In this document: piece after piece, positions 3,508 to 40,655 of the stretch
How the letters are laid out: each line of letters begins with the position of its first letter
Position numbering within the stretch: the first letter of the stretch is position 1
NCBI RefSeq assembly: GCF_050589625.1
Contig: NZ_JBNGOP010000003.1
Location: 87,023 to 151,022 of the forward strand
DNA: 64,000 nt
Source of the DNA: Maribacter sp. 2-571
Lineage (GTDB): Bacteria > Bacteroidota > Bacteroidia > Flavobacteriales > Flavobacteriaceae
Reading direction: 5' to 3'
Made by a program: the position numbers and the translations under genes
The notes under the pieces: model-generated
What the model was told of the DNA's origin: nothing
Databases searched by the model: none
The model's input: only the letters and a program-made list of their open reading frames with translations

Positions 3508-3528
3508 AACCGAAAAGCTCCGTAAACG

Positions 3529-4857: not shown

Positions 4858-5401
4858 TAAATTTTTGATGCTTTTCGTTGTTCTTTTTTTGATGGCCTGT
4901 GGTGAAGAGACCCTTCCAAAACCGAATGCCGTATTGCGATTGGAATATCCAAAAGCGCAATGGGATACCTTAAGTGTGGGGCATTTTCAATTTCAGAAGA
5001 ACCGATTGGCCAAGGTAAAGGACCGTACTTCCGAGTCGTTGACCTTGGATTACCCCGCTATGAAGGGGACGATTTATTTGAACTATAAAAAAGTAGACGC
5101 TAATTTAGAGAAGTTATTGGTCGACGCACAAAAGTTCAGCTATGAGCATGCCGTAAAGGCCGACGCGATCGATACAAAAGTATTCCAGAACGAGGAGGAA
5201 CGGGTATACGGGCAGTTTTTTTCGGTCAGTGGCGATGCGGCGTCCCAGGCACAGTTTTATGCCACGGACAGCACCGATCATTTTGTGACCGGTTCGCTTT
5301 ACTTCTACGCGCGGCCCAATTATGACTCCATTTACCCCGCTGCCGTGTATTTGCAGAACGACATCCTTACGATAATGGAGAGTTTGAGGTGGAAGGAGTA
5401 A
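4847..5401 (+). CDS. gldD: Gliding motility lipoprotein GldD (putative)
   Basis: Lipobox LFLMAC, about 184 aa, overlaps the gldE stop (operon). Identified by position and size; no motif independently recognised. Confidence 0.55.
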   Translation: MMCNKFLMLFVVLFLMACGEETLPKPNAVLRLEYPKAQWDTLSVGHFQFQKNRLAKVKDRTSESLTLDYPAMKGTIYLNYKKVDANLEKLLVDAQKFSYEHAVKADAIDTKVFQNEEERVYGQFFSVSGDAASQAQFYATDSTDHFVTGSLYFYARPNYDSIYPAAVYLQNDILTIMESLRWKE

Positions 5402-5925
5402 ACTTTATATTTAATAATCTTAGTTTTTGGTTTTATGCGGTTGTCGCAATCGCTCTTGTTTTCTTTGGGCTTTGGGTGAAAAAAAGGAGTGTGAATCAAA
5501 ATTCGAGCGAATCCAAAAATGATTATCAAGAGGAACTGAAAAATTCCGGAAATCGGATTAGAGTTGTTTTCGACCACTGCCATATTAAACATCGCGAATA
5601 CGAGCAGGAAGTTATTTTGCGAAAAGACACGAGATATCAGAAACGGATTATAGTTCGTTATTCAGAGTGCGAAGTAATATTTGAACTTAAGACCGATAAA
5701 AAAGTGATTGCGTATACAAGCCCAACTCTGTATATGGAACTTATCAACCTTCGTTACAAACTGTATGAGAAAAAAGAAACCATTATTTATGTTTCTAATA
5801 AAAACAATTTCGAGGTTACGGATGAAGAGGGTTTTACCAGGGTAGTTTCCAATGATGGAGAACCATATTACTATTTTGATTTGGAATTTTTGGGAGACAA
5901 GGTATTTTCACGGCCAAAATATTGA
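5389..5925 (+). CDS. Hypothetical membrane-anchored protein (AT-rich islet)
   Basis: 178-aa ORF with an N-terminal TM helix (FWFYAVVAIALVFFGLWV); low GC; no recognisable domain. Confidence 0.4.
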   Translation: MEGVNFIFNNLSFWFYAVVAIALVFFGLWVKKRSVNQNSSESKNDYQEELKNSGNRIRVVFDHCHIKHREYEQEVILRKDTRYQKRIIVRYSECEVIFELKTDKKVIAYTSPTLYMELINLRYKLYEKKETIIYVSNKNNFEVTDEEGFTRVVSNDGEPYYYFDLEFLGDKVFSRPKY

Positions 5926-6258
5926 AGATGAAATTCACTTCATCGGAATATTTCACGAACAAATGGACCTAAAATAGAATGCTAGAGCAACAACTAATCC
6001 AGTAAAACTAAAAACAATACGGGCTTAGGTTTTAAACGAAAGGGTTATGTTTCTTTATAAGGTTCGAAAAGTATTTAGATTCAGAAAACATTACGCAACA
6101 CCGTGTACAATTCATTGCTAGGCATAGCTCGCAAAAGAGAATTTAAGCGGAATTTTCTATCTGTTATTATTTAGTAAGTTTTATTATAAACACCCAAAAA
6201 ACGGCACACGAGACTATTTTGAGTAATTCTTGGAGCAATTTTTGTTGTTTCAACAGAT

Positions 6259-6765
6259 ATGAAAAAATCAGCCTTTCTTCTAGTGATTTTTCTTGTGAAT
6301 GGACTCTCTACATATGGGCAGGAAAATGTAATTACCGAATTTGATTTATATGGTTGTTGGACTTTCCAACGTTCAAAAGATGGAGAACGGCTCGAAAAAG
6401 AGGTAAATCGATCCTGTCTTAAAACTGATGAAACACTTTTCCGTCAGAATTCAAAAATCAGGTTTATGGCCCACAATAAATGTGAGTTTCAGGCCGTAAT
6501 ACAAGATGCGGTTTGTCCGATAATATATAAAACTGTTGAGGGGACTTGGACTTATAGCGATACATCTGGAATAATAGAAATGTACTACCCTAAGAACTTT
6601 AAAGCAGAATTTTGGGAAAAAGTAAAAGAAGACTATCCTGAGTTAGAAATTCCTAACCCAAGACCATACATGAGGTTCGAGATTATTAGCTTAGACTTAA
6701 AAAGAATGGAAATAAAAAAACTACGTACCAAAATGGCTATGGCAAATAGGGGAAAAAGTGAGTAA
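6259..6765 (+). CDS. Hypothetical secreted protein
   Basis: Signal peptide MKKSAFLLVIFLVNGLSTYGQ; 168 aa; AT-rich. Confidence 0.45.
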   Translation: MKKSAFLLVIFLVNGLSTYGQENVITEFDLYGCWTFQRSKDGERLEKEVNRSCLKTDETLFRQNSKIRFMAHNKCEFQAVIQDAVCPIIYKTVEGTWTYSDTSGIIEMYYPKNFKAEFWEKVKEDYPELEIPNPRPYMRFEIISLDLKRMEIKKLRTKMAMANRGKSE

Positions 6766-6978
6766 ATTTTTGGCTTGGGCTTACTTATCAAGTCCGCCAA
6801 AGCTTATTGATTTAACTATATGATTTCTATTTTCGTTATGGAATTCGTGATAACGCTGCGTTAAGTTCGCAATGAAAAAAATAACTACGAAACAAAAGGC
6901 TATAGCCAACTGACCGGACGGAAACGAAAAGTTTCCTTGTCTCTGCTCGTACAACCATTGTAAGCAATTTAAGAATAC

Positions 6979-7392
6979 ATGAAAAAGTTCACCAATAAAG
7001 TAATTGTTATGACTATTTCTTTTATGGTCTTAACCATTGTCGTTGGATTTGTTATTTACAAAAATAATGTGCCGCAAACCGTGGTTTGTGCAACTCCCGA
7101 CCCTGTTTTATTCTGCGGAACAGAATCAAACTTCACGGAAACTGCTCTTAACGGAAGAAAAATTTTCAGAACCCATTGCGCCGCTTGCCATTCGATGCGC
7201 AGAAAAATGACTGGACCCGCTTTTGCAGAAATGGATTCAATAAAAATACGGGAATGGTTGACGAAGATGGAGGAAAAAATAGATAGCACCAAGTATTCAG
7301 AAATGGGAATTGATTTTCATAAAAATATGTGGGGTGATATTCTGAATGAAGAAGAAATCGGACAATTAATTGAGTACAACTGGACGAAATAA
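6979..7392 (+). CDS. Membrane-anchored c-type cytochrome domain protein
   Basis: N-terminal TM helix plus a single haem-binding CxxCH motif (THCAACHSM). Confidence 0.55.
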   Translation: MKKFTNKVIVMTISFMVLTIVVGFVIYKNNVPQTVVCATPDPVLFCGTESNFTETALNGRKIFRTHCAACHSMRRKMTGPAFAEMDSIKIREWLTKMEEKIDSTKYSEMGIDFHKNMWGDILNEEEIGQLIEYNWTK

Positions 7393-7492
7393 AACTGCGC
7401 CAAATAAAAATTAAGGCTCATACAGCCGCCGTGAAGGTCGGTAGCAAGATTTTGGTTTGTAATTTAGTCTAACACCTTGTCTGTCATAGCAA

Positions 7493-7864
7493 ATGAAAAG
7501 TAAGATTGTATTGGAGTTTAAAAGGTATAATTGGACTGTCGACTATTCGATAATTGAGGTTTCCGATAATTTTTATCGTATCATGTTTCCAAATTGTTTC
7601 ATTGAATACTATAAGAATCAGATGTACCATAGTATTGAATGTTGTATTGATATTGATGGAAAAAAGTACGACTTAGAAACTGCTCTGAGATTTAATAAAA
7701 GGAAGACAGGGTATTTGTATAACAACCATTCGGACTTAGAAATTGCAAGATTTATTGAGCAGTATACTGAAACGCTTTACTTTGAATTATTACATTTTAT
7801 CATCCATGATTTCTCTTGGGCCGATAGACAAGCCCATAATTCTCGGAATATAAATTGCATATAA
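7493..7864 (+). CDS. Hypothetical protein
   Basis: 123-aa ORF followed by a rho-independent terminator; no recognisable domain. Confidence 0.4.
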   Translation: MKSKIVLEFKRYNWTVDYSIIEVSDNFYRIMFPNCFIEYYKNQMYHSIECCIDIDGKKYDLETALRFNKRKTGYLYNNHSDLEIARFIEQYTETLYFELLHFIIHDFSWADRQAHNSRNINCI

Positions 7865-7865
7865 G

Positions 7866-7892
7866 CTCCTTTAAGGGGCTTTTTTCTTGGCC
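7866..7892 (+). terminator. Rho-independent terminator after 7493..7864
   Basis: GCTCC-TTTAA-GGGGC hairpin followed by TTTTTT. Confidence 0.55.
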
Positions 7893-8200
7893 GGTTAGAT
7901 GGCCGATTATGGTTTCCGGTGCTTTACGGAGCTATCCAACAGATTCTATAGGATGGCTTCGGGCCATACTGCTGAACACACAGGGAAGCCTTCACGAGCA
8001 TCTCCGCCTCGCTTTTCGAAGGTTTTTGTCCGAATTTCAGGCATTTCTTCAGGTGGTTATGTAGAAACAAAAAACTATTCCAAATGCAGAACAAAGCTGT
8101 TTATAAACGGAATGACAATCAATTTCACAGATGGTATCATCCAACAAAAAGGAAAAATGTTTAGTTTAATAGGATTTTAAAAACCGAAACCATAACAATA

Positions 8201-8833
8201 ATGAACAATGAAGCACAACATTCAACTGATGTAGGTCCTGATAAATTCACTTCAAAAGCAGAACACAATCCAGGACAAGACATGTATGACACTAAAAAAG
8301 AACCAAGAAAATCAATGGGGGTCTATTTGAAAAATCAAAATAGGCTCATAATGAATTCGATAGCGATCGCGGATAAAAAAGCGGCAATTTTAATTAGGAT
8401 AAACACTGCAATAATATCTGCTTTGATCGTATTTGAGAGTTATTTTAAAGGAAATACATCCTTTAATGAACAAATTATACCTGTTCTGATCATTGGGCTT
8501 TCCATTTCATTGATTTTTGCCATTCTCGCAGCAAAACCTTTTAGCTATATTATGTATAAGGTCTTTAATAAAATTGTCAAAAAGAAATATCCGAATTTAG
8601 AAGAAAACAACTTCATGATTTTTGAAGTACCGGAATTTGAGAAGTATGAATTGTCAATGCAGAAGGTTTTAAAGAGTCAAAACCTACAAATAGGGAACCT
8701 TACCAGATTTAACTATTTTATGAGCAAAAGCATCTCTAGGAACTACCTACAGCTAGAAATTGCGTACACTATTTTTTTAATTACGGTCATCGTCGTTGCT
8801 GGCCTATATATCGGTTCAAACTACTTTTGGTAA
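8201..8833 (+). CDS. Hypothetical membrane protein (3 predicted TM helices)
   Basis: 210 aa: K-rich soluble N-terminus, two central TM helices and one C-terminal TM helix; AT-rich. Confidence 0.45.
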   Translation: MNNEAQHSTDVGPDKFTSKAEHNPGQDMYDTKKEPRKSMGVYLKNQNRLIMNSIAIADKKAAILIRINTAIISALIVFESYFKGNTSFNEQIIPVLIIGLSISLIFAILAAKPFSYIMYKVFNKIVKKKYPNLEENNFMIFEVPEFEKYELSMQKVLKSQNLQIGNLTRFNYFMSKSISRNYLQLEIAYTIFLITVIVVAGLYIGSNYFW

Positions 8834-31450: not shown

Positions 31451-32557
31451 CTACTTGTTTACAGCAAAAATCTCTTTTAACTGTTTGACCATACCCCCGT
31501 TCCCGGAGACGGTGATCTCACCAATCTTTTCGGCGATTTTCTCCACATATTCCATCTCTTTCAACTTGAAGAGCATTTCGTTTTCTTCCATTAGTTTAGC
31601 GGTGTTCAGCAAACTTCGGGTAGAAGCGGTCTCTTCACGTCGTGTAATGGTATTGGCCTGTGCCTGTTTTTGTGCCACAAGCACTTGGTTCATGATAGCC
31701 TTCATTTCACCCGTTAAGATGACATCTCGGATACCACAGTTCAGTACTTGTACGCCCAGGTCGGCCGCTGTTGTCTTGATTTCGGAAAATACCGCATCGG
31801 CGATGCGTTCCTTTCGCTCTAACAGCTCATCCAAGGTATAGGTGCCTATGTAGGCACGCAATACCAATTGAATGGCAACATATAACTGCTTTTCGTAGTC
31901 TTTGTTTTCCAACAAGGCCTTTTCAATAGCAACTACTTTATACTGGGTATAGCAGTTGATTCGAATAGCGGCCTTGTCCTTGGTCAACAATTCTTGCCCT
32001 GAGATCTCGAGTTGCAATTGTCGCATATCGGCGCGTGCAATCTTTACCGAGGTATCGTTTTTCCAGAAGTGGTATACCCCACTGTCCAGAACCTTCACGA
32101 AGGTATCCTCGACCAGTAACAGCGCTTTTTCGTATGCCAAAATCTCCAATACACGAATGTAAGGGCGCAGCAACGGATGGCCTAGCAGCATTTTGCCAAT
32201 GGGTTCGGTGATGTAGATTTTACTTAAATCGGCCATCACGAACTCATAATTGATCAATCCTTTCCAGAAAGCATATTTACCGGCTGCAAGCACTTTTTTC
32301 AAAGTCCCGTTTTCAGATACCAATGCCAACTCCGCATCTTTTACCTCGATAACGTGCAATAGTGCCTCCAAACCTTGGTCCTGTAGCAAAATCTCCAATG
32401 CTATCGGGGCCACAAAGGCTTTGGTGAGGTCGTATACCATGACCATGTTTCGTAGGCCTACCCAGTGTGTGCCTTGGGTAATAACGTTTTGGTAATCTCC
32501 ATTTTTGAAGACCAAACCTACTTTTCCTGCATTGATTCGTACTCGTTTCATCATCAT
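31451..32557 (-). CDS. SPFH/band-7 (slipin/flotillin-like) domain protein
   Basis: 368 aa; band-7 core followed by a long coiled-coil C-terminal region (VAQKQAQANTITRREETASTRSLLNTAKLMEENEMLFKLKEMEYVEK). Confidence 0.75.
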   Translation of the reverse strand: MMMKRVRINAGKVGLVFKNGDYQNVITQGTHWVGLRNMVMVYDLTKAFVAPIALEILLQDQGLEALLHVIEVKDAELALVSENGTLKKVLAAGKYAFWKGLINYEFVMADLSKIYITEPIGKMLLGHPLLRPYIRVLEILAYEKALLLVEDTFVKVLDSGVYHFWKNDTSVKIARADMRQLQLEISGQELLTKDKAAIRINCYTQYKVVAIEKALLENKDYEKQLYVAIQLVLRAYIGTYTLDELLERKERIADAVFSEIKTTAADLGVQVLNCGIRDVILTGEMKAIMNQVLVAQKQAQANTITRREETASTRSLLNTAKLMEENEMLFKLKEMEYVEKIAEKIGEITVSGNGGMVKQLKEIFAVNK

Positions 32558-32940
32558 TTTAAATTTGTGTCCGCCTCGCCGGTGACGGACGAACGGGTTA
32601 AACTATCATCATATATTTTAGTTGTTTCTTTTGTTTAAAAAACCGCAGCTGTGGTTCATCCATCGACTACGGAAATATTGGTTTTTGAAGTGTCGGATGA
32701 TTTGTTTTTTAGTATGCTTCCATCGGCTTTGCCAAAGGTGTTCATTGGTTTTTTCCAAGGGAGGGATATTCAAAAAGAAATGACCTTCCACATCAAATAG
32801 TCAACATTTCAAGGTAGTATTAAGACTGTTTGCCTTTCCGAAGAAAAGCCGACCGATCCATAACTACGGTTTTTTGTCATTTTAAGTCTAACAGGACTTG
32901 GAGACCAGTTTTAAAAGATGGTCGGCTTTAGAAAATGGAT

Positions 32941-33115
32941 TTTCAGTCCATATCCCACGTTATGAGCGTGGTGCTCTACCAACTGAGCTATCCCGATGCT
33001 GGCGGGAGCAGGAGTCGAACCTGCGCATCCTTCTGTTGTTCTAACCTAACTGAACTACGGTTCCAAATAGAACCGACGGGATTCGAACCCGTGACCGACA
33101 GATCTGAGACCATTT
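32941..33115 (-). pseudogene. Cluster of scrambled tRNA gene fragments (Asp-type 3' half, Asp-type 5' half, a 3' T-arm/acceptor fragment, an anticodon-CAT tRNA lacking a matching 3' acceptor)
   Basis: Minus strand reads ...GGTCACGGGTTCGAATCCCGTCGGTTCTA-TTT-GGAACCGTAGTTCAGTTAGGTTAGAAC-AACAGAAGGATGCGCAGGTTCGACTCCTGCTCCCGCCA-GCATCGGGATAGCTCAGTTGGTAGAGCACCACGCTCATAACGTGG... The acceptor halves do not pair within any unit. Confidence 0.6.
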
Positions 33116-33159
33116 TTTGGAAAACAGCCGAAACCTTCAAGTCAAGTTGTATATGAAGA

Positions 33160-34500
33160 CCTAATACTTCTCAGTAAGACTTCACACAATAGTGCTATAC
33201 AGAAACACCCAACAAGACCCGCTTGATACTTTATTCCCGCGAAGGCGGGAATCTTTTACGATTTCCCTATGCGAAGCGTAGGCCTCGCCATGGAATCTTA
33301 TCTTTCAATGAACTTTAATAAACCTGGCAACACGCCTTGTTGCTGCGAGGCACCCCCGCAAACCACGATAAGCTGCGGTTTGCACTATATTTTAAAAAAA
33401 CGTGCTGGGAATACCCACGCTTATGGACAAGCTTTCGTAGGAGTATGGCGAACGCTTTCCCTACTTTTCCACGCGCCTTCCGTTGCTTTGGAAATTGCGT
33501 ACCTGTCCGATGCCAAATACATTGTAGCCGTTCGGCAACTTAGACCCGGCCTGCATAGCGGTTTTTGGCCGCGCTTTGCAATTACGGGGGTTGGCTCCCC
33601 CACCGTTCACAGGTGTCCCCTTGCGGGGCGACCTATTGGAATGTTCACCGCATGGTATCGGCTTGCGACCGCTACCACCCCATATGTTACAATGGGTTTA
33701 GGCAACTACTAGCTGCTACAATGCCCGAAGTCTTTCGCTTTTTATGTTCTATAAAATTTTGGAAAAAAGTCTAGTAACAATTAATCATTTGACCTGGAAG
33801 AAGGGCTTCGAGAATGGCTCCGTAGATTTTGGCCTACAAAATACCAACCTTCTTCCTGTAAGCTTCCCAGCTTACGGCAGTTCCAGCCACCGAACAGTTT
33901 ACCTGTCGGGTTACTTTTATGCTGTAATCGGCACCGTTAAATCGGATGGTTTAAGCGTTACCGAGAACTACAACTTTTCCTGTTGGTGTCTCCACCGCAA
34001 GCCTACTTTTGGTCGGCTATATTTTTCTAAGGCCTCTCAGCGGTCGCCCCTGAGGCCTTGTAAAAATATGTTGGTTGCTTGCTTACCTGTACTCCCCCCG
34101 AAGGGGATAGTCTCCATTTGCGAGGCCCGCAAATAGATTTATCCTTGTTACCAAGTTTATCTAAGGACGATAAGCCGCCCCGTCATTTACAAGAAATGAC
34201 GATTTTTTTCGTAGAAGCCCATGATATGGACTCCTTTTTATTTCAATGAACTTTAGTTGAGCCTCACAACACTCCTAGTTGCTGCGAGGCACGCTCACAA
34301 ACCTCTTTTTAAAAGGCTTGTTTTTAAATACTGGGCAAAATTGAATCATAACTACGCAATTATTATGCGTAGATATTTTTTTTCATCGCATTACTTCTGC
34401 GTCGTCACGCTGAGCCTGTCGAAGCGCATTTCATTTTTGCTCGCCCCTCGACAAGCTCGGACTGACAATGCGTTGTTCATTTGACCATCTTTATTGCGGT
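33160..34500. other. ORF-free, hairpin-dense region of about 1.3 kb containing a duplicated ~90-nt motif (TTTCAATGAACTTTA...GTTGCTGCGAGGCAC) at ~33294 and ~34225, each followed by a plus-strand terminator-like hairpin
   Basis: No credible ORF. Many perfect hairpins (ggcctctcag...ctgaggcc, gtaagcttcccagcttac, ccccgaagggg). Terminator-like hairpins at 33365-33405 and 34352-34384 on the plus strand. Confidence 0.4.
34352..34384 (+). terminator. Rho-independent terminator (plus strand) inside the noncoding region
   Basis: CTACGCAATTATTATGCGTAG hairpin followed by ATATTTTTTTT. Confidence 0.5.
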
Positions 34501-34509
34501 CTTTTCTTT

Positions 34510-34594
34510 GGGTGTACTCCGGTCCCGACGCTTCGGGAGAACCCTGTTCTTCCCATTCACAGTGGGACGCTTTACCAGATAAGCTAGAGACACC
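34510..34594 (-). ncRNA. tRNA-like element, anticodon GTG (His-like), T-loop replaced by a TCCCGA-AGCG-TCGGGA hairpin; the most degenerate member
   Basis: Manual fold: acceptor GGTGTCT/GTACACC (one mismatch); anticodon arm TCCCA-CTGTGAA-TGGGA; then GTTC plus hairpin. Confidence 0.35.
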
Positions 34595-34599
34595 ATTTG

Positions 34600-34671
34600 A
34601 AGATCCGAAAGGAGTTGAACCTTTACGCCAAGGATCAAAACCTTGTATGCTAACCGTTACATCACGGATCT
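34600..34671 (-). tRNA. tRNA-Gln (anticodon TTG)
   Basis: AGATCCG-TG-ATGT-AACGGTTA-GCAT-A-CAAGG-TTTTGAT-CCTTG-GCGT-AAAGG-TTCAACT-CCTTT-CGGATCT-T; all stems pair. Confidence 0.8.
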
Positions 34672-34676
34672 ATTTG

Positions 34677-34748
34677 TACTCCATAAGGGAATCGAACCCT
34701 TGTCTTCCGATAGAAAGTCGGATGCACTAGCCACTATGCTAATGGAGC
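34677..34748 (-). tRNA. tRNA-Glu (anticodon TTC)
   Basis: GCTCCAT-TA-GCAT-AGTGGCTA-GTGC-A-TCCGA-CTTTCTA-TCGGA-AGAC-AAGGG-TTCGATT-CCCTT-ATGGAGT-A. Confidence 0.8.
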
Positions 34749-34754
34749 ATTTCT

Positions 34755-34848
34755 TCTGAGAAGCAACCCCGATGCTTCGGGGGAACTTGCGACCTCCCGC
34801 TTCCAAAGCGGGTAAACATCTCCCGAAGCTTCGGGATTATCTTCCCAG
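34755..34848 (-). ncRNA. tRNA-like element, anticodon TGG (Pro-like); both the D-arm (TCCCGAAGCTTCGGGA) and the T-loop (CCCCGAAGCATCGGGG) are replaced by palindromic hairpins
   Basis: Acceptor CTGGGAA/TTCTCAG; anticodon arm CCCGC-TTTGGAA-GCGGG; T region GCAA-G-TTC-hairpin-TTGC. Confidence 0.4.
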
Positions 34849-34852
34849 TTTG

Positions 34853-34936
34853 CAGTACCGACGGCCCCGAAACTTCGGGGGAACCCGTACCTTCCCGATA
34901 GACAGTCGGGCGCTCTAGCCTTTGAACTACGGTACT
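34853..34936 (-). ncRNA. tRNA-like element, anticodon GTC (Asp-like), canonical acceptor/D/anticodon arms, T-loop replaced by the CCCCGA-AGTT-TCGGGG hairpin
   Basis: AGTACCG-TA-GTTC-AAAGGCTA-GAGC-G-CCCGA-CTGTCTA-TCGGG-AAGGT-ACGG-G-TTC-[CCCCGAAGTTTCGGGG]-CCGT-CGGTACT-G; acceptor stems perfectly complementary. Confidence 0.5.
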
Positions 34937-34939
34937 TTG

Positions 34940-35010
34940 CGCGTCCGTAAGGATTCGAACCTCAATCCTAGGTTTTGGAGACCCAGATGCTGCCATTACA
35001 CCACAGACGC
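34940..35010 (-). tRNA. tRNA-Trp (anticodon CCA)
   Basis: GCGTCTG...TGGGT-CTCCAAA-ACCTA-GGATT-GAGG-TTCGAAT-CCTTA-CGGACGC-G; short D-arm but all stems pair. Confidence 0.75.
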
Positions 35011-35014
35011 GTTG

Positions 35015-35108
35015 TGGAAGCAGTAGCCCCGACACTTCGGGGGAACCTACATGTCATTTCTGAACCTGATTTACAGTCAGGCGAGCCAGCCAGTTGCTCA
35101 ATGCTTCC
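35015..35108 (-). ncRNA. tRNA-like element, anticodon GTA (Tyr-like, type II with long variable arm), T-loop replaced by the CCCCGA-AGTG-TCGGGG hairpin
   Basis: GGAAGCA-TT-GAGC-AACTGGCTG-GCTC-G-CCTGA-CTGTAAA-TCAGG-[variable arm]-GTAG-G-TTC-[hairpin]-CTAC-TGCTTCC-A; acceptor and D-stems perfect. Confidence 0.55.
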
Positions 35109-35117
35109 AAAATTTCA

Positions 35118-35243
35118 GAGACAAGGATGAGATTACTCACGCTATCTCTATTCTTTCTTAAGTAGTTCGTGAATGCTTTGCATTTCGAACTTATAAAAAA
35201 TGGTTTTGCAGGCCATTGCCTTAACCATTCAGCCACCTTGTCT
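35118..35243 (-). ncRNA. Degenerate tRNA-like element (possible GCA/Cys-like anticodon) with a ~75-nt hairpin-rich insertion in place of the T-arm
   Basis: Acceptor AGACAAG/CTTGTCT pairs perfectly; D-arm GGCT...; anticodon region AATGG-CCTGCAAAA-CCATT; remainder is nested hairpins. Confidence 0.25.
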
Positions 35244-35249
35244 ATTTGG

Positions 35250-35346
35250 CGGAGGGTAAAGCCCCGACGCTTCGGGGGAACCTTCACTACCTTTGGTAGA
35301 CTCGCTTAGCAGGCGAGCGCAACAAACCAGTATTTGCCTACCCTCC
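35250..35346 (-). ncRNA. tRNA-like element, anticodon GCT (Ser-like, type II long variable arm CTACC-AAA-GGTAG), T-loop replaced by the CCCCGA-AGCG-TCGGGG hairpin
   Basis: Acceptor GGAGGGT/ACCCTCC perfect; anticodon arm CTCGC-CTGCTAA-GCGAG; T region GAAG-G-TTC-hairpin-CTTT. Confidence 0.5.
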
Positions 35347-35527
35347 AGTCACTTCAGCCGTGGCCCCGACACTTCGGGGGAACCCACACGAGACTGGTTA
35401 CTCCGAAAACTTTTAACTCCATCATTTCTACTTTCATAGGTCTCGTTGAATTCGCAAGCTCATTTCAAGAGTGTGGCCACCGCCCTTTGGCTTGCCCTTC
35501 CTTTTTTCAAAAAATAATGCGCATAAA

Positions 35528-35557
35528 AAAAGCATCTCTTTATCGGAGATGCTTTGT
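35528..35557. terminator. Bidirectional rho-independent terminator hairpin
   Basis: AAAAAAAGCATCTC-TTTATCG-GAGATGCTTTGTATAT: 7-bp GC-containing stem flanked by an A-run and a T-run. Confidence 0.5.
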
Positions 35558-35759
35558 ATATATGTGAATGTTGTCTATGACGTCAACACATGATACACGT
35601 ATTTCTCCTTTGTTTACAAATGGACAGTTGATGACTATAAAACCGTTCAAACCATTTCGGCGAACAGCGATGTAGTTCCGCTAATTGTATATGTCTTTTT
35701 AAAAATTCCATTTGTAATAGATTTATACTTTATGACGATGCAAACCTAAAAATGATTTT

Positions 35760-35997
35760 TAGATTACACAAGAAAAAATCAATTTAATTTATTGATAATC
35801 AGGTAGTTATAATTAAAATTTGAGTAATAAGGTTCCTGTCCGTCATATTGCGGATTTTGAATATTTTACACAATCGCCTGTCTACCAATTGTTTCGTGTT
35901 TCAACTAGCTATTCTTGTATTTTTCTACTTCTCATTCAATGGTTAAAATTATTCCATAAAAAAAGCGTCCAATTCAAATTGGACGCTTTCTTTTTAT
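35760..35997 (+). repeat. Copy 1 of a ~230-bp intergenic repeat (promoter-like TTG...TAnnTTTG, ~170 nt, terminator hairpin AGCGTCCAATT/AATTGGACGCT)
   Basis: Direct nucleotide similarity to 39990-40225 (shared ...AATCAATTTAATTTATTGATAATCAGGTAGTTATAATT..., CCTGTCCGT, CAAATGG, CATAAAAAAAGCG-CCAAT...TTGGACGCT). The ORF-track ORF 35820..36008 contains the terminator and is probably not coding. Confidence 0.6.
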
Positions 35998-36170
35998 CGC
36001 TTAATTAAGTCATTTCATAGAATCAACTACTGGATAAAGTCACAAAACGCCCGTTTCGTTCACTATATTCCGAACGAAAATGGTCAAGGCTGAGCCCTAT
36101 ATGTGGGGTGATATGTAACTTTCTCTGTTTCATTTGTACTACAAAGATGTAATTTTTAAACGTTTCGATA

Positions 36171-36719
36171 TTAATTTTTATGCTTTTTCTTTCTCTTTTT
36201 TGAAGAGTACTGCCTCTTTTTTACTTTGGATTTATCCCATTTCAACTTCTTCTTGACCCTGTTCTCCTCTTCTTCGATAAAGGAAAAGTAATCATCATTG
36301 AAAGCATGTTTTTTGGCCTTCTTCAGTTGTTTTATAGCAGCCTTATAATCTTGTTTGGTTTCCGCCGCATACGCGGAAAGCCAAAATAGACTTCCTTTTG
36401 CTATTCCCTTTATACTGAAAGCAAAGGCGATAAGTTTTGCTGCTCTATCGATTTCATCGGCCCAAATAAGGTATTTTGTATAAACAGGATAAACAGTTGT
36501 ATAATCACTGTTTATTGCGATTACTTTATCAAAACAGGCAAAAGCTTCGGCATACCGATTCAAGTTACCAGCATATACTTCCCCCAAAAGGCAAAGTGCC
36601 GCACAATGGTTTTCATCGTAAGACAGGGCATAATTTAATGATTCACAAACTTCGTCCCAGTCATAACCCGATGCCGCCTTGGCTTTTAAATAATAGGTGT
36701 CGGCTATTGTCAATCCCAT
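36171..36719 (-). CDS. TPR-like repeat protein with a highly basic C-terminal tail ([16 protein letters not shown])
   Basis: 182 aa, helical repeats; start overlaps the prfH stop by 10 nt (translational coupling). Confidence 0.55.
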
Positions 36720-37402
36720 TGTTGTTTTTTTAGATTGTTCTTATACTTCTGCCGTATGGCTTTAAAGCTTTTGTTCTTTTTTTGATGTTTGAAGTCGGTT
36801 CCTTTAAAGACCCGAACCGGATTTCCCCGTTGTAGCTTCAAATGATTTTCCCATTGGTCCGATATACTGTTTTTCAACTGCCGAAGGTTGGCCTCGTTCA
36901 CCTTTTCCTGTAACCGGGTTTTTGCCAGTTTTTTATTTTGGTGCTGCGACCTGTTATCCATGGCAACGACCTGAATTCCCGTCGGATGATGAGTGGCCCT
37001 AACCGCAGAGTTGACCTTATTTACATGCTGCCCACCAGGCCCTGTGCTTCTCATGGTTTGAAAAGAGATATCGTTATCCTTAATTGCTGTAGGGTTCAAC
37101 AGTTTCAGTTCAAAAACGCCGATGAACCAGTTTTTTCGTTTATGGTACTTTCGAAAATTTGAGGTGCCGATCCATTGAATGGTTCCTAACCACGTTGCTA
37201 AAAAAGTATTTAGGGTACTCCCTGTCAGCCCAATGGTGACCGATTGTACCGTGCCGTTTTGAGAACCTTTTTCCTGATGAAGTATGGCATATTGCAATCC
37301 TTCTGCCTTTACTTCCTGCAAGAATAGCTTTAGCACTTGGGAAACGACCCAGCAACATTCTGCCGGGCCTCTTCCTGCTGTAATTTGTAATATCTTTTCC
37401 AT
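36710..37402 (-). CDS. prfH: Peptide chain release factor H (PrfH; RF2-like, lacking domain 1)
   Basis: 230 aa with the GGQ motif ([25 protein letters not shown]), immediately downstream of the RtcB gene, as in the classical prfH-rtcB pair. Confidence 0.75.
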
Positions 37403-37426
37403 TGTTTTTAGTTTTATTAGGTATTA

Positions 37427-37525
37427 AGTACTGAGTACTTAGTACAAAGTATTTTGAATACCTTCTCAATACTCAATACTCAATACTCAATACTCAATAC
37501 TCAATACTCAATACTCATATCTCAC
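37427..37525. repeat. Heptanucleotide microsatellites in the rtcB-prfH intergenic region: (AGTACNN)x4 followed by (TCAATAC)x7-8
   Basis: agtactgagtacttagtacaaagtatt ... tcaatactcaatactcaatactcaatactcaatactcaatactcaatactcatatc. Confidence 0.85.
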
Positions 37526-37532
37526 TACTATT

Positions 37533-38924
37533 TCATTTATCCATTCGTACTATTTTAGGGGTAAAGGTTCCAAGTACTTCAACCAATTCTTGTTGATTCG
37601 CCATGACTTTTTCTATGTTTTTATAGGCCATCGGCGCTTCGTCTATTCCCCCGCCAATGAGGGTTACTTCATTGGCGTTCAATTGTTTTTTAATCTCGTT
37701 TTGGGTAAAGGTCTCCTTACACTTTCGTCTTGAAAAAAGACGCCCTGCACCGTGGGAGGCGGATTGTAAGCTCGCTGCATTTCCCAAACCTTTTACGATG
37801 TAACCCGGTGCCGTCATAGATCCGGGAATGATTCCCAGTTCGCCTTTTGCAGCCGGAGTCGCTCCTTTTCTGTGTACGATACACTCCTCACCGTTTACCT
37901 CTTGTTTCCAGGCAAAATTGTGATGGTTCCGTATCTTGACTATTGGTTTTGCTCCTAAAAGCTTGGCCAGCCTAGTATGAATATCATCGTGGCATGCGGT
38001 AGCGTAATCGCCCGCCAAACGCATCGCCAACCAATATTCCTGTCCGTCATGAGTATTTAAATCCAACCATGCCAAATGCTGTACGTGTTTGGGCAAGGGA
38101 CATTGCTTAGTGGCCAAATACGTGTACTGTTTTGCAATGTTCGCACCAAGGCCACGCGACCCGCTATGGGAAAGTAGACCGAGATATTCCCCCGATTTAA
38201 GTCCCCATTCGTTATCGTCGTCCGTAAGGGTTACCGTACCGAATTCAACAAAGTGGTTTCCTCCACCTGAGGTTCCCAACTGCTTGTACGCCTTGTCCTT
38301 TAGTCTTTTTACGAACGGTATATTTTTAAATTCTTCTCGCTCAAAGATTTCATGGTCATGCTTTATCCGATGCGTTTCCCGCATTCCGAACTTGGTATGT
38401 TCGGAAAGCATGTTCGCCAATTGATGCTTCTTTCCTTTAAGGTAGGAAACCGCAATAGGATAAACGGTCAAACACATACTACAGCCAATATCGACTCCTA
38501 CACCATAGGGGATTACCGCATTATGGGTCGCCAAAACACCCCCGATCGGCAGGCCATACCCGCTATGGGCATCCGGCATTAGAGCACCAGCTACGGAAAT
38601 CGGTAATTTTAGGGCATCGTACAATTGATACTTGGCTTGTTGCTCAATTTCATTTTCACCGTATATCCGAAAAGGAGCGCGTACCGTTTTGAGTTCCTGT
38701 TTTTTAACGATGACCGGGTCCAATAAACTTTCGGCTATCTTTCCCCACACGGCATCACCGCTATAGTCTTCGGGGTGCAACAACACTTTTTTGGCTTCCG
38801 TCAATACCTGCGCTTTCTTTTTTCGCTTATGGTACCTGTTGATCTGGCCCAAGGTGATGTTTATACTATTGTTCTTTGGAAAACCTAATTTGATCAGGTC
38901 CTTCCCGCTTAATTTTTTTCCCAT
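37533..38924 (-). CDS. rtcB: RtcB-family RNA 3'-phosphate ligase (release-factor-H-coupled RtcB2 type)
   Basis: 463 aa; conserved RtcB motifs MPDAHSGYG, GGGNHF, NHHNF and SHGAGR (metal and GTP-binding His/Cys residues). Confidence 0.8.
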   Translation of the reverse strand: MGKKLSGKDLIKLGFPKNNSINITLGQINRYHKRKKKAQVLTEAKKVLLHPEDYSGDAVWGKIAESLLDPVIVKKQELKTVRAPFRIYGENEIEQQAKYQLYDALKLPISVAGALMPDAHSGYGLPIGGVLATHNAVIPYGVGVDIGCSMCLTVYPIAVSYLKGKKHQLANMLSEHTKFGMRETHRIKHDHEIFEREEFKNIPFVKRLKDKAYKQLGTSGGGNHFVEFGTVTLTDDDNEWGLKSGEYLGLLSHSGSRGLGANIAKQYTYLATKQCPLPKHVQHLAWLDLNTHDGQEYWLAMRLAGDYATACHDDIHTRLAKLLGAKPIVKIRNHHNFAWKQEVNGEECIVHRKGATPAAKGELGIIPGSMTAPGYIVKGLGNAASLQSASHGAGRLFSRRKCKETFTQNEIKKQLNANEVTLIGGGIDEAPMAYKNIEKVMANQQELVEVLGTFTPKIVRMDK

Positions 38925-39694
38925 GATATTTCGTCTTTTAGTAATTGGTGAATGGAATATTTTCTAAGGTTTTGGACATCTTTTTTAATTTTTCTGTTCC
39001 GTTTTTTCACTTCTTCTACCTTCCACCAATCGTTCCATTTGTCTAGTTTTTCATTCGTTTCGTAATAGCCATGCTTTTTCATTTGCTGTCCCAATAGCGC
39101 ACTTTCACTTTCCAGTTTTGGGTCAATGCGTTTGCTATGGGTGATAAAGGCTCTGGTAAATCGGATCCGATATGCCCCTCTCGGGATTTTTACATAGTAC
39201 CGGAGTCTCAATTTTTTACTTTCCACCATATAGTGGAAAGGCATGCACAGTAATTTTGCTTTATCGCTCAATCGATTGTACTGTTTTTTGCTAATGGTCG
39301 GAATTTCCTTGTTGATCAAATATTTTGAAGTTTGATGACGCCACTTTTTTTCCGCTTCTTCTTTGGTGCGTCCCCAAAATAGTTTTTCCACCTTATCGTA
39401 CACCTCTCTTATAGCGGCACCATTTTTATAGTGCTCCACGCCATGGGTGATGATAATTTCTTTAAACCAACCATGTCGAATAGGCTTCTTTAACTCGATA
39501 AACCCCAGTGCATTTTTTTCTGCCCATAGTTGACCTAGTCTCTTTCGAATACGACGAATTTCTTTCGCTCTTTTACATTTGATATGTGGGGGTTTCACGA
39601 CACATCCGTTTTTAGGGTTGCATTTTTTTAAAATCAGGTTGCTGCATCGTTCGATGCCAAAATCGTTTGCGCAATGGCATTGATTTTGTTTCAA
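38909..39694 (-). CDS. Hypothetical Cys-rich, highly basic protein translationally coupled to rtcB
   Basis: 261 aa; N-terminal CHC...C...C..C...C (CHCANDFGIERCSNLILKKCNPKNGCVVKPPHIKC) zinc-ribbon-like cluster; Lys/Arg/Trp-rich; 16-nt overlap with the rtcB start. Confidence 0.5.
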   Translation of the reverse strand: MKQNQCHCANDFGIERCSNLILKKCNPKNGCVVKPPHIKCKRAKEIRRIRKRLGQLWAEKNALGFIELKKPIRHGWFKEIIITHGVEHYKNGAAIREVYDKVEKLFWGRTKEEAEKKWRHQTSKYLINKEIPTISKKQYNRLSDKAKLLCMPFHYMVESKKLRLRYYVKIPRGAYRIRFTRAFITHSKRIDPKLESESALLGQQMKKHGYYETNEKLDKWNDWWKVEEVKKRNRKIKKDVQNLRKYSIHQLLKDEISWEKN

Positions 39695-39989
39695 AACCCG
39701 GTTTTATCGCATTTTCGACCCTTAGGACGAAAATTTTGTATGTAAACTGGGTTAAATGATCCTAGTATAAATCCCGGAAAGTCCTGCCTTTAAAAATCAG
39801 GCATAAAAAAAGTCCGAAACGTTTGGGCTTCGGACTTTCGATCATAGGCTATGGTGGCATTATGTATTGTAGAAGTCCTGAAGCGACACCAATAAAGCAC
39901 CTGGTGCTTTTAGTGTTTTTCGATATGTATTTATAAAAGTCATACTACTTCAGTTAAAAATGGGAGTGATTAATTTTGATGCAAATCTA

Positions 39990-40228
39990 AAACGCTTTTT
40001 TGGATTTACCAAATTAAAATCGATTTAAATTACTGATAATCAATTAGTTATATTTAGGTCAAGACACAGCTGTCCCTGTCCGTTTTGGAACGGATAGCAG
40101 CATATTTCATGAATTTGCTGTTTATCAAACGATTAGCTTTCAAATGGCATCCTTTTGAAATTTGGAGAATTCCCAAAAAAAATTACATAAAAAAAGCGCC
40201 CAATTTCTTGGACGCTCCAGTTATGTAT
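39990..40228 (+). repeat. Copy 2 of the ~230-bp intergenic repeat (promoter-like element, ~170 nt, terminator hairpin AGCGCCCAA/TTGGACGCT)
   Basis: See copy 1. The ORF-track ORF 40085..40327 overlaps it and is probably not coding. Direct orientation relative to copy 1, so together they bracket the rtcB-prfH cassette. Confidence 0.6.
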
Positions 40229-40367: not shown

Positions 40368-40655
40368 CTATAATATCGCTATTACTTTACCATACACATT
40401 TTTGGTCCATCCATTAATTCTACCGTGATTGTTGCCAATAAGCAGACCACGTTTGTTGTTTTTCCCTTTAACAAGATGTGTAAAGACGTTTCCACGTACT
40501 TTACAATACACAATGTCACCTACCTCACAATCTTCCCAACCAATGGGCGCAATGCGCACCGCTTGTTTCGATTTTAAAAGGGGCAACATAGAATTGCCGG
40601 GTTCTTTTGAAATGATGGTCTCACCATCCTGTAATTTTTGAATTTTCCAATTCAT
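40368..40655 (-). CDS. Small S24/S26-family peptidase-like protein (LexA/UmuD-like catalytic domain only)
   Basis: 95 aa; GNSMLP (compare the GDSMEP Ser-nucleophile motif) and a downstream Lys (KVRGN). Confidence 0.4.
   Translation of the reverse strand: MNWKIQKLQDGETIISKEPGNSMLPLLKSKQAVRIAPIGWEDCEVGDIVYCKVRGNVFTHLVKGKNNKRGLLIGNNHGRINGWTKNVYGKVIAIL

Follow-up and report, generated by a model that had tools for sequence, protein, structure and literature searches.

Gene Repertoire and Conservation of the Locus

An ORF check of the window, the whole 64,000-nt stretch of Maribacter DNA under analysis, recovers four co-oriented genes on the minus strand, A, RtcB, PrfH and TPR (table 1). An earlier note on this DNA had called the same quartet, and all four reading frames lie where it placed them and are conserved. 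Its description of the first product as a Cys-rich protein at 38909-39694 is, however, an artefact of ORF extension. The true start is the GTG at 39598 (135 homologues, almost all of 229 aa and beginning MKP.HIK), and the Cys-bearing 32 N-terminal residues of the longer ORF (39599-39694) fall in the leader and lack conservation among homologues. The HMM searches that the note had advised match RtcB to PF01139, PrfH to TIGR03072 (246 bits; cutoff 167) and the TPR protein to TPR_8. RtcB has a conserved N-terminal extension of ~80-90 aa; on the "release_rtcB" model it reaches 152 bits against a cutoff of 272, and thus it may act on a different substrate from Escherichia coli RtcB2. PrfH aligns with the solved Capnocytophaga PrfH (chain 9mor_A; E 1e-81) through residue 225, tail included.

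Table 1. Features of the locus, in window coordinates
Feature	Position	Strand	Remarks
U copy of ~255-nt promoter module	39966..40221	-	nhmmer E 2e-49
Operon leader, read as attenuator	39804..39975	-	uORF, seg1-seg4, terminator
Gene A	38909..39598	-	229-aa very basic protein of unknown fold, GTG start; recurrent third RtcB/PrfH partner
RtcB-family 3'-phosphate/5'-OH RNA ligase, 463 aa	37533..38924	-	PF01139 E 1e-82
Heptamer tandem repeat CTCAATA x 9.3	37465..37529	.	inside rtcB-prfH spacer
PrfH, 230 aa, GGQ motif, basic C-terminal tail	36710..37402	-	tail-bearing PrfH-CT subfamily
TPR protein, Lys-rich C-terminal tail	36171..36719	-	TPR_8 E 8e-6, just above cutoff
D copy of promoter module	35727..35991	-	nhmmer E 5e-54
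Leader of tRNA array	35522..35734	-	uORF, GGAGA segment, terminator
Remodelled tRNA array	34520..35400	-	Ser(GCT), Cys, Tyr, Trp, Asp, Pro, Glu, Gln, His; all except Trp, Glu and Gln with a hairpin replacing T-loop nucleotides 57-60, or degenerate
GOLLD-like large RNA, ~890 nt, divergent	33382..34269	-	3' half 33402-33856 matches RF02032
Conserved RNA region, ~400 nt, permuted tRNA-like (YrlA-like) modules	32840..33240	-	conserved in at least 25 loci
Band-7/SPFH protein	31451..32557	-	conserved co-oriented downstream neighbour (25 loci)

The genes were said to overlap each other, which holds for A and rtcB (16 nt) and for prfH and TPR (10 nt), but rtcB and prfH are 130 nt apart, and in relatives accessory genes are inserted in this spacer. 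A single operon is nonetheless probable, as proposed: a synteny survey finds the order A-RtcB-PrfH-TPR in ~65 of 80 Flavobacteriaceae species genomes from more than 12 genera, and by this comparison the four genes form one conserved unit. Distant homologues of A (~25-30% identity) again adjoin RtcB and/or PrfH in other arrangements (RtcB-PrfH-A, PrfH-A, A-RtcB), and a Band-7/SPFH gene also adjoins a distant A homologue. TPR proteins are already known as RFH-RtcB accessories; the 2019 list of such genes includes one together with a charged protein without homologues (Burroughs and Aravind; PMC6514570), and the latter is probably protein A.

The operon lies upstream of, and in the same orientation as, an array of tRNA and tRNA-like genes, as the note had it. 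Of 72 loci for which no less than 3 kb downstream was available, 33 have an array of 5-19 tRNAs in the same orientation, and 32 show none within the examined sequence. The link between prfH-rtcB and tRNA arrays is thus not unique to this strain; uniqueness was what the note had itself named as counting against its proposal.

The tRNA Array and Associated Large RNAs

Only three to four members of the array, which the note described as a bank of tRNA-like genes, are canonical tRNAs (Trp at 34939-35010, Glu at 34676-34748, Gln at 34599-34671). Since most members in the window are non-canonical, simple tRNA replenishment is not the whole story here. In six members of the array the T-loop bears one and the same 16-nt hairpin, precisely at positions 57-60, and their proximity to an RNA ligase gene could indicate intron-like inserts which are cut out and re-ligated by RtcB. 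Removal of the hairpin would, however, leave a nonfunctional T-loop of 3-4 nt; in relatives that share the operon the tRNAs are ordinary, with only one T-loop hairpin in 80 loci, and the motif is widespread in metagenomes with no RtcB, PrfH or A nearby. We therefore hold it highly improbable that these genes are RtcB substrates.

Two large RNAs are predicted past the array. The GOLLD-like RNA scores 138 bits on RF02032 (E 2.6e-37) against a gathering score of 150. The YrlA match of the second region is likewise below the gathering score (37.7 bits, E 1.4e-5); its modules comprise a T-arm, a loop-closed acceptor stem and a D-arm, and the region ends in a terminator-like hairpin.

A Duplicated Promoter Module

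The earlier note had reported the same ~230-bp element in direct orientation on both sides of the genes. Two direct copies, upstream (U) and downstream (D), are indeed present, but the element measures ~255 nt and the copies are only ~75% identical, with indels. Chance is excluded for this repeat by the nhmmer E-values (~1e-49 and ~1e-54) and by recurrence in ~72 related loci. To judge from its sequence, the module combines a terminator hairpin that is invariant with two conserved boxes and a -33/-7 promoter of the Bacteroidota sigma-A type. In U, the hairpin (GGAGCGTCCAA..TTGGGCGC) and its T-run occupy 40193-40218, followed by the boxes ATCCG..CGGACAGG and TAACTAATTGATTATCA, a -33 TTTG (40010-40013) and a -7 TAGATTTG (39982-39989), with a predicted transcription start near 39975. 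D has its hairpin at 35962-35989, a -33 TTG at 35769-35771 and a -7 TAGGTTTG at 35741-35748, with transcription presumably starting near 35734. U is found upstream of gene A in ~72 of 80 related loci, with or without an array. The module stands upstream of the array in ~37 loci; D precedes all 33 arrays of at least five tRNAs, exactly where the array starts, and no further copies occur in the 20-kb loci or the 64-kb window. Counterpart copies are 85% identical between genomes versus 75% for U and D within the window. D is a second, anciently diverged copy of the module.

Two readings of the repeat had been offered, a mobile cassette and coordinated promoter control. In the first, the repeats would be the ends of a 4-kb element carrying rtcB-prfH, transposable or mobilised by recombination; they do bracket the four genes directly, and the prfH-rtcB unit is sporadic in distribution and thought to spread horizontally (PMC6514570). 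Yet each copy resembles its counterparts elsewhere more than the other copy in the window, U occurs in loci without D, and D tracks the array start, sometimes 3-5 kb past the TPR gene. In addition, no integrase or transposase was found nearby, the segment between the repeats is missing from none of the 80 relatives, and protein A, searched for in viral contigs, is absent from them. A mobile cassette is hence very unlikely. The evidence favors promoter control, each copy holding a terminator and a -33/-7 promoter, then its own leader, at the starts of gene A and of the array.

Leaders with Upstream Open Reading Frames

The operon leader contains a uORF of 27 codons from an ATG at 39943 to a TAA at 39860 (MTFINTYRKTLKAPGALLVSLQDFYNT), preceded by seg1 (CTGAAGT, 39947-39953) and enclosing seg2 (GCTTCAGGACTT, 39873-39884); seg3 (39827-39838) and seg4 (39809-39820) form the terminator, with a T-run to 39804. 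None of the 60 aligned AT-rich sequences departs from the ATG or interrupts the frame, whereas stops interrupt the other two frames in 52/60 and 45/60. Length is 27-28 codons in 54 of the 60, and the stop codon falls 21-32 nt ahead of the terminator arm. RNAalifold recovers seg1:seg2 and the terminator. The competing seg2:seg3 helix, the antiterminator, is 97% paired and shows compensatory changes; alignment column 141 covaries both with column 91 (antiterminator) and with column 172 (terminator), a three-way covariation that fits attenuation by sensing of stalled ribosomes. The pairing scores are reached by 0/500 shuffles, and slid controls collapse. Median duplex energies are -7.8 (1:2), -14.4 (2:3) and -14.5 kcal/mol (3:4). 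When a ribosome is positioned at codon 8, 58/60 nascent transcripts form the antiterminator; the free leader at equilibrium adopts the terminator state in only 46/60 sequences, and a simple codon-8 footprint mask does not by itself favor the antiterminator. The attenuation model needs kinetic and steric arguments.

The array leader has a uORF of 42 codons (ATG 35711 to TGA 35583, MEFLKRHIQLAELHRCSPKWFERFYSHQLSICKQRRNTCIMC) and, at 35529-35555, a terminator with a T-run behind it. This uORF measures 38-44 codons in 32 of 38 loci, with its stop 28-33 nt ahead of a covarying terminator. By-eye inspection indicates that the GGAGA segment could pair with the 5' arm of the terminator, as a candidate antiterminator. 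The design of uORF plus terminator is common to the two leaders, whose sequences differ.

In an alternative scenario the leaders are not leader-peptide attenuators but structured regulatory RNAs or small RNAs in which binding of a ligand, a protein or another RNA (for instance protein A, a tRNA fragment or a T-box-like contact) decides between terminator and antiterminator, or else stand-alone sRNAs of ~170-210 nt. The operon uORF peptide is poorly conserved, the tested codon-position periodicity and third-position bias were not seen in this uORF, and a hairpin inside it covaries at all five pairs; thus the leader could be a factor-bound structured RNA rather than translation dependent. The conserved boxes of the module suggest additional protein control, and in Salmonella tRNA fragments are reported to induce rtcBA through RtcR (PMC7790460). 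Against this scenario stand the invariant ATG, the fixed-length open frame with the other frames closed, the fixed spacing from stop to terminator, the bulged antiterminator nucleotide at an Arg wobble position, and the same design in an unrelated leader; nor does an Rfam search match either leader to any family. We consider it unlikely, though deserving of some weight, and retain a leader-peptide switch that probably turns on operon and array when ribosomes stall.

A Putative Translation-Damage Response Unit

We put forward, as a probable though by no means secure reading, that Flavobacteriaceae carry here a chromosomal unit for responding to translation damage, composed of two transcription units whose control regions are paralogous, with stall-sensing leaders and co-made products. 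Each unit would begin with the ~255-nt module, its hairpin acting as an insulating terminator ahead of boxes and promoter, followed by the leader with its uORF and intrinsic terminator. In healthy translation the lead ribosome at the uORF stop would cover segment 2, so that the terminator forms and transcription stops. An early stall in the uORF, brought about by tRNA cleavage, decoding-centre damage or inhibitors, would let segment 2 pair with the 5' arm of the terminator, and RNA polymerase would read through. Unit 1 would supply protein A, the RtcB RNA ligase, PrfH-CT and the TPR protein; here the biochemical role of RtcB is taken from the literature, as is that of PrfH-CT, peptide release from ribosomes stalled by a 16S rRNA cut or a truncated mRNA. 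Unit 2 would be the long tRNA array, in this strain remodelled and followed by the GOLLD-like RNA and a tRNA-mimic RNA. We infer uORF translation and conditional termination, as well as the parts played by protein A, the TPR protein, the array and the large RNAs.

Operon and array might instead be functionally uncoupled, the shared element being a strong promoter duplicated once. The array-linked loci are all from Flavobacteriaceae, and so part of the synteny may reflect inheritance rather than selection; moreover, nearly half of the loci are without an array in the examined sequence and the two leaders differ. However, ~255 nt, including non-promoter boxes and the invariant hairpin, are held in both copies across genera, and both units have acquired the uORF-plus-terminator logic. 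Furthermore, in a phage-like contig the neighbours of a distant A homologue are an array of 10 tRNAs and a protein of the 2H-phosphoesterase / 2'-5' RNA-ligase family, and co-regulation of rtcB with a tRNA array has been demonstrated in cyanobacteria (PMC8421152). Mere inherited synteny is thus improbable in our view.

The claim that this configuration was undescribed is overstated. TPR and charged-helix accessories of RFH-RtcB were already listed in 2019, a ribosome-bound structure of the tail-bearing PrfH (PrfH-CT) from Flavobacteriia is available (PMC12829566), and in Anabaena rtcB and a long tRNA array are co-regulated through shared promoter operators and induced by translation stress (PMC8421152, PMC10272220). 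In P. aeruginosa, the leader peptide PA5471.1 places armZ and the adjacent PA5470, annotated as prfH, under stalling-dependent attenuation (PMC12057347), similarly to what is predicted here for the operon. If the preferred reading of a damage response unit is correct, a stall would cause read-through in both units, and rescue and ligation proteins would be made together with spare tRNAs. The core enzymes are already known; the new part would be the wiring common to both units.

The operon and its link to tRNA arrays

The observation that prompted this analysis, an rtcB-prfH cassette next to unusual tRNA genes, proved largely real, although partly mis-described. All four co-oriented minus-strand ORFs of the earlier note were recovered at the positions it had given. 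An alignment scan of species-representative genomes with protein A, the product of the first gene, returned 80 loci, all from Flavobacteriaceae or unclassified Bacteroidota MAGs. The order A-RtcB-PrfH-TPR is found in approximately 65 of these, and in seven others A-PrfH-TPR occurs without RtcB in between. Downstream sequence of 3 kb or more was available for 72 loci: in 33 of them an array of 5-19 tRNA genes follows in the orientation of the operon, in seven there are 1-4 tRNAs, and in 32 no tRNA appears within the sequence available. The proposed association of prfH-rtcB with tRNA arrays thus holds beyond the window strain; the juxtaposition recurs in relatives and is therefore not a peculiarity of one genome, and all array-linked loci come from a single bacterial family, the Flavobacteriaceae. 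The window array itself is composed of 3-4 canonical tRNAs and some six remodelled ones. Further downstream, a co-oriented Band-7/SPFH gene is found in 25 loci, array-less loci included. Our literature search retrieved no report linking PrfH to tRNA arrays or describing the operon and array leaders, and what pairs a tRNA gene array with the term Flavobacteri is a virus-genome survey. The conserved physical link between the operon, long tRNA arrays and orphan RNAs is new.

A separate observation concerns a 95-aa protein encoded just upstream of the promoter module; its resemblance to S24 peptidases, with a GNSMLP motif, is weak (E 0.05). At 80-97% identity across genera, it is more conserved than the operon proteins. 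Some 20 of the 80 loci have the gene no more than approximately 1 kb upstream of gene A, and about 10 others have it at another place in the locus.

Features of the locus and their positions in the window
Feature	Position	Strand	Remark
S24-peptidase-like gene	40368-40655	-	95 aa
Promoter module, upstream copy	39966-40221		opening hairpin and T7 at 40193-40218
Operon leader	39804-39975		terminator 39838-39804
Gene A	38909-39598	-	GTG start at 39598
rtcB	37533-38924	-	
Heptamer repeat	37465-37529		directly after rtcB stop codon
prfH	36710-37402	-	
TPR gene	36171-36719	-	last ORF of the operon
Promoter module, downstream copy	35727-35991		opening hairpin at 35962-35989
Array leader	35522-35734		terminator 35555-35522
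tRNA array	34520-35400		
16-nt hairpin copies	34523-35383		at 34523, 34767, 34817, 34865, 35027, 35262, 35364
GOLLD-like RNA	33382-34269	-	3' half matching RF02032 at 33402-33856
Repeat bracketing the GOLLD-like RNA	33323-33364 and 34262-34303		
tRNA-mimic region	32840-33240	-	YrlA matches at 32973-33100
Band-7/SPFH gene	31451-32557	-	

PrfH and RtcB

With the PrfH equivalog model TIGR03072, whose cutoff is 166.65 bits, the window PrfH reaches 245.6 bits (model positions 2-200 of 200), and its translation contains the GGQ motif (GPGGQH). Residues 2-225 of its 230 aa align, basic C-terminal tail included, to the 231-aa chain 9mor_A (E 1.2e-81), the Capnocytophaga gingivalis PrfH (CgPrfH) solved on ribosomes (PMC12829566). 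This end-to-end alignment assigns the predicted protein to the PrfH-CT subfamily, which is typical of Flavobacteriia and comprises proteins of 225-250 aa with an extra basic C-terminal tail of approximately 26 residues (PMC12829566). PrfH-CT rescues both 16S-damaged and non-stop ribosomes, peptide release on the two having been shown for CgPrfH only (PMC12829566).

The rtcB gene lies on the same strand upstream of prfH, and the pairing is kept in approximately 70 loci. The window protein is a clear RtcB (PF01139, E 1e-82), but differs from the published RtcB2 in a conserved N-terminal extension of 80-90 aa and in falling below the cutoff of the PrfH-associated model TIGR03073 'release_rtcB' (151.9 versus 271.8 bits). 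Its best profile match is the phage-type phrog_1075 (E 1e-98). A recent phage origin was nevertheless rejected, since protein A is absent from the viral contigs searched and actual phage RtcBs are merely ~35% identical to the window protein.

Protein A and the accessory genes

The first ORF had been described as Cys-rich. However, the Cys-rich stretch, its 32 N-terminal residues, is untranslated leader: nearly all of 135 homologues are 229 aa long and begin with MKP.HIK, and the true start is therefore the GTG listed in the table. Protein A, a very basic protein, matches nothing in Pfam, NCBIfam, PHROG or PADLOC, and a PDB structure search with its confident AlphaFold model (pLDDT 85) returned no significant structural neighbour. 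An exhaustive profile search recovered a family of 202 cluster representatives, all of approximately 215-250 aa. We looked up the genomic context of nine distant members, at roughly 20-30% identity. Four of them adjoin RtcB and/or PrfH, in the arrangements RtcB-PrfH-A (with overlapping codons), PrfH-A-A, PrfH-A and A-RtcB. Another, on the phage-like contig L084, stands beside a 10-tRNA array and a 2H-phosphoesterase/2'-5' RNA-ligase-family protein, and independently connects the A family to tRNA arrays and to RNA-end chemistry. One more (locus L089), without RtcB or PrfH, neighbours a Band-7 gene whose product is 56% identical to the Band-7 protein of the window. Thus, protein A is a recurrent partner of RNA-repair genes. 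As to the layout of L084, a metagenome contig, positions 3523-8526 hold the tRNA array, several small ORFs, a 294-aa A homologue and a 524-aa protein with GP88, 2'-5' RNA ligase (2H) and Acb1-like domains.

The last ORF gives a marginal TPR match and ends in a Lys-rich tail. The four ORFs had been reported to overlap throughout, which is so for A and rtcB (16 nt) and for prfH and the TPR gene (10 nt), whereas rtcB and prfH are separated by 130 nt. This spacer contains 9.3 tandem copies of CTCAATA, a heptamer that reads TATTGAG on the coding strand; no such repeat was found in the rtcB-prfH spacer of relatives, which carries accessory genes instead. Spacer length varies between 12 nt and 2.2 kb across loci, the long spacers holding extra co-oriented genes. 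These are variable (loci L006, L009, L048, L069 and others) and include a Pol-beta-like nucleotidyltransferase (~182 aa), an Ntn-hydrolase (~313 aa; PF03417 AAT, 4e-12) and Zn-ribbon proteins of 150-200 aa.

A survey of RFH-RtcB systems has already listed their accessory genes, among them a TPR protein, a Pol-beta nucleotidyltransferase, charged-helix Zn-ribbon proteins and a charged-helix protein without detectable homologues (Burroughs and Aravind 2019; PMC6514570). The listed TPR protein corresponds to the TPR gene found here, the spacer genes of relatives likewise match the list, and the charged-helix protein without homologues is probably protein A. The "two additional unstudied partners" of the earlier note are therefore already on record as gene-neighbourhood observations, and remain unstudied. 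In the passages of the survey consulted, neither tRNA arrays, GOLLD and Band-7 nor an Ntn-hydrolase accessory gene, a duplicated promoter module or leader uORFs are mentioned.

A duplicated promoter module

The repeat said to flank the cassette does exist in two copies, but it is approximately 255 nt long rather than 230, and the copies are ~75% identical, with indels. Iterated nhmmer searches place the module, at full length, upstream of gene A in approximately 72 loci (E 1e-30 to 1e-55). A second copy occurs in approximately 37 loci, always downstream of the operon, and precedes all 33 arrays of at least five tRNAs; no further copies were detected by these searches in the related loci or in the 64-kb window. 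This distribution supports the suggestion of coordinated promoter control. The repeats are a shared control region and not the boundary of an element, so that the alternative suggestion of a mobile cassette falls. A mobile element with direct repeats is also at odds with the divergence of the copies, with the lack of recombinase domains in the flanking genes and with the presence of the segment in 80 of 80 relatives.

Read along the operon strand, the module is built of four blocks. It opens with an almost invariant hairpin, AGCGTCCAA-N4-TTGGACGC, followed by T7; then come a conserved box, ATCCG..CGGACAGG, a second conserved box containing TGATTATCA, and finally TTG, 19-20 nt and TAnnTTTG, which we take to be the -33/-7 architecture of Bacteroidota housekeeping promoters. 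A sigma-54 promoter, as in E. coli rtcBA, was considered and rejected on inspection, the TTGCA at the module end lacking a GG 12 nt upstream. The downstream copy of the window is 85% identical to its counterpart in the related locus L001, compared with ~75% to the upstream copy of the window. That the copies are closer to their counterparts in other genomes than to each other argues for a duplication that is old and has been maintained. Such an anciently duplicated promoter module is a new element.

The terminator hairpin that opens the module shows 85-97% sequence conservation across genera, without covariation, which is unusual for a plain terminator. This perfect palindrome could also be a protein-binding site.

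The leaders

Both leaders end in intrinsic terminators that are conserved in sequence, and no Rfam family matches either leader. In the operon leader an invariant ATG opens a short upstream ORF (uORF) of 27-28 codons in 56 of 68 loci, with its stop 21-32 nt before the terminator arm. The array leader has a uORF of its own, of 38-44 codons in 32 of 38 loci, which stops 28-33 nt before a covarying terminator.

RNAalifold predicts that a first segment of the operon leader (seg1), just 5' of the ATG, pairs with a second (seg2) formed by the Leu-Arg codons of the conserved LRDF motif, and also recovers the terminator, seg3:seg4. An alternative helix, seg2:seg3, would act as antiterminator; it is 97% paired and shows compensatory changes. 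For instance, column 141 changes from G to A in eight sequences, in which columns 91 (antiterminator) and 172 (terminator) both change from C to U. Just one nucleotide bulges out of the antiterminator; it is the Arg-codon wobble base, and all four bases occur there. Predicted stabilities are equal for terminator and antiterminator (-14.5 and -14.4 kcal/mol), seg1:seg2 being weaker (-7.8 kcal/mol). When a nascent-transcript model is run with a ribosome halted at codon 8, 58 of 60 transcripts form the antiterminator; in static MFE folding the ribosome footprint mask alone did not switch the operon leader, so the switch appears in the nascent-transcript model only. In the array leader, a GGAGA-type segment varies between clades in a way that keeps its match to the 5' arm of the terminator, as judged by eye. 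Covariation thus supports mutually exclusive terminator and antiterminator helices in the operon leader, while in the array leader the terminator covaries and the by-eye match provides a candidate antiterminator.

The nature of the operon uORF deserves caution. Its frame is open in all 60 aligned sequences, with stops in the other two frames in 52 and 45 of them, as expected if its translation operated the switch. In the same alignment no codon-position periodicity was detected, the peptide is not conserved beyond LRDF, and a hairpin internal to the uORF covaries. The missing periodicity and the covarying hairpin therefore keep a live alternative, in which the operon leader is a factor-binding RNA rather than a switch governed by uORF translation.

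Ribosome-mediated attenuation at both units is, nevertheless, the simplest reading of these alignments and folds. Under ribosome-mediated attenuation, efficient translation up to the uORF stop would cover seg2 and lead to termination, while a ribosome delayed early in the uORF would leave seg2 free to sequester the terminator arm. The common uORF logic and the common promoter module together predict joint induction of both units, by which damage to translation would bring up the PrfH-CT rescue factor, the RNA ligase with its two accessory proteins, and the tRNA bank. The two putative uORF attenuators are new elements of the locus.

Remodelled tRNAs and the downstream RNAs

Apart from T-loop positions 57-60, which a 16-nt hairpin, CCCCGAAGnnTCGGGG, replaces, six tRNA-like genes of the window array (Ser-GCT, Tyr, Asp, Pro, His and one more) hardly differ from canonical tRNAs of the related locus L003; the Pro gene has a further copy in its D-loop. 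Seven copies in the window compare with 0.02 expected. A single copy of the hairpin was found in the 80 related loci. The motif GTTC plus hairpin recurs in at least 120 metagenome stretches, often within 500 nt of a tRNA, and among the matches listed there was no Rfam family and no RtcB or PrfH nearby. The T-loop hairpin is a separate phenomenon, unrelated to RtcB/PrfH, and on both counts (the single copy among related loci and the listed metagenome matches) we rejected the idea that hairpin-bearing tRNAs are splicing substrates of RtcB.

After the array lies an RNA of approximately 890 nt. Its 3' half matches the whole GOLLD model RF02032 (positions 1-416) at 138 bits (E 2.6e-37), yet falls short of the gathering score, 150. 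Only four relatives (L001, L003, L048 and L051) have a homologue, and all of these fall short of it too. The RNA looks like a divergent, flavobacterial GOLLD subtype. We found no paper naming both GOLLD and RtcB. A direct repeat of approximately 42-65 nt, 83% identical, brackets this RNA, and in the relative L002, where GOLLD is absent, the repeat sequence occurs once; this suggests insertion or loss of GOLLD between duplicated sites.

A further region of ~400 nt holds two tandem permuted tRNA-like modules, each with T-arm, loop-closed acceptor stem and D-arm. One module keeps an anticodon arm with CAT, and there is one tRNA match of 36 bits. At least 25 loci conserve this region, which in array-less ones comes directly after tRNA-Tyr. 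The Salmonella rsr-yrlBA-rtcBA operon, regulated by RtcR and sigma-54, also has Y-RNA-like tRNA mimics beside RtcB. The likeness lies in tRNA-mimic modules near rtcB; here, however, the YrlA (RF02553) matches reach 37.7 and 32 bits, far below the gathering score of 69, and cover the tRNA-like core only (model 23-89).

Comparison with known systems

The PrfH-RtcB core is known biology, and its accessory genes have been noted before. As in E. coli rtcB2-prfH and C. gingivalis PrfH-CT-RtcB, a GGQ-bearing PrfH is encoded beside RtcB; according to published work, the peptide is released when a ribosome has been cut at A1493 or has stalled on a truncated mRNA, and the 16S rRNA is then re-ligated (Tian et al. 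2022, PMC9304027; PMC12829566, 2026). The published rtcB2-prfH is a two-component operon, in contrast to the four genes described here (up to seven in relatives), with a putative attenuator leader and a linked array.

A parallel to the paired units is the trn L-array and rtcB of Anabaena, in which promoter-proximal elements are also common to a tRNA array and rtcB, and which are induced together via TrcR upon impaired translation or translation inhibitors (PMC8421152; PMC10272220). The TrcR regulon includes a slipin (Band-7) gene (PMC8421152; PMC10272220), and a Band-7 gene is present at the window locus too. In Anabaena, however, the genes are unlinked (megaplasmid versus chromosome) and a ribbon-helix-helix repressor acts on 9-nt repeats. 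Here the units are adjacent, share the ~255-nt element, include PrfH and apparently use uORF attenuation, and the two conserved module boxes differ from the published TrcR site.

A short leader peptide upstream of an operon with a PrfH-annotated rescue factor is also found in Pseudomonas aeruginosa, where termination ahead of armZ and PA5470, the latter annotated prfH, is relieved when translation of the leader peptide PA5471.1 is impaired or ribosomes stall (PMC12057347). That system belongs to another phylum, its sequences are unrelated, an efflux anti-repressor rather than RtcB, A and TPR lies downstream, and there is no paired tRNA array. The papers retrieved that treat PrfH together with a leader peptide concern Pseudomonas or general stress responses. 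Finally, a large ornate RNA within a tRNA cluster recalls the GOLLD (RF02032) of phage and mycobacterial tRNA clusters (PMC6582537; PMC12286853). Unlike these, the GOLLD-like RNA is chromosomal in Flavobacteriaceae, scores below gathering, and resides in a locus with PrfH and RtcB.

Implications

A more encompassing reading, which we put forward as a rather improbable one, is that everything from the upstream module to the Band-7 gene forms one regulon triggered by ribosome stalling, in which the RNAs are working repair parts and not passengers: spare and remodelled tRNAs would serve as replacements or as decoys for anticodon nucleases, and the GOLLD-like and tRNA-mimic RNAs as scaffolds or substrates of RtcB-A-TPR. 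If so, this would be the first functional context for GOLLD, and protein A would be a third core component of PrfH-RtcB repair. Independently of that reading, protein A should rank high for biochemical work, since it occurs with RtcB/PrfH in several lineages and in varied gene orders, and the GOLLD-like RNA and tRNA mimic are now placed in a defined, culturable setting (Maribacter, Tenacibaculum, Aquimarina).

To our knowledge, no system other than PrfH-RtcB combines the rescue of ribotoxin-cleaved ribosomes with their repair. Apart from the Pseudomonas PA5471.1 leader, our literature search found no description of its on-switch. The locus offers a testable candidate sensor, in which the translation status of a leader ORF would set the choice between terminator and antiterminator. 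This should interest researchers in the fields of ribosome rescue, of RNA repair and of large non-coding RNAs, the locus being directly testable. Algal and animal surfaces are home to several of the carrier genera, and competition by means of toxins is plausible there. With a like putative sensor before the tRNA array, repair proteins and spare tRNAs would be deployed together.
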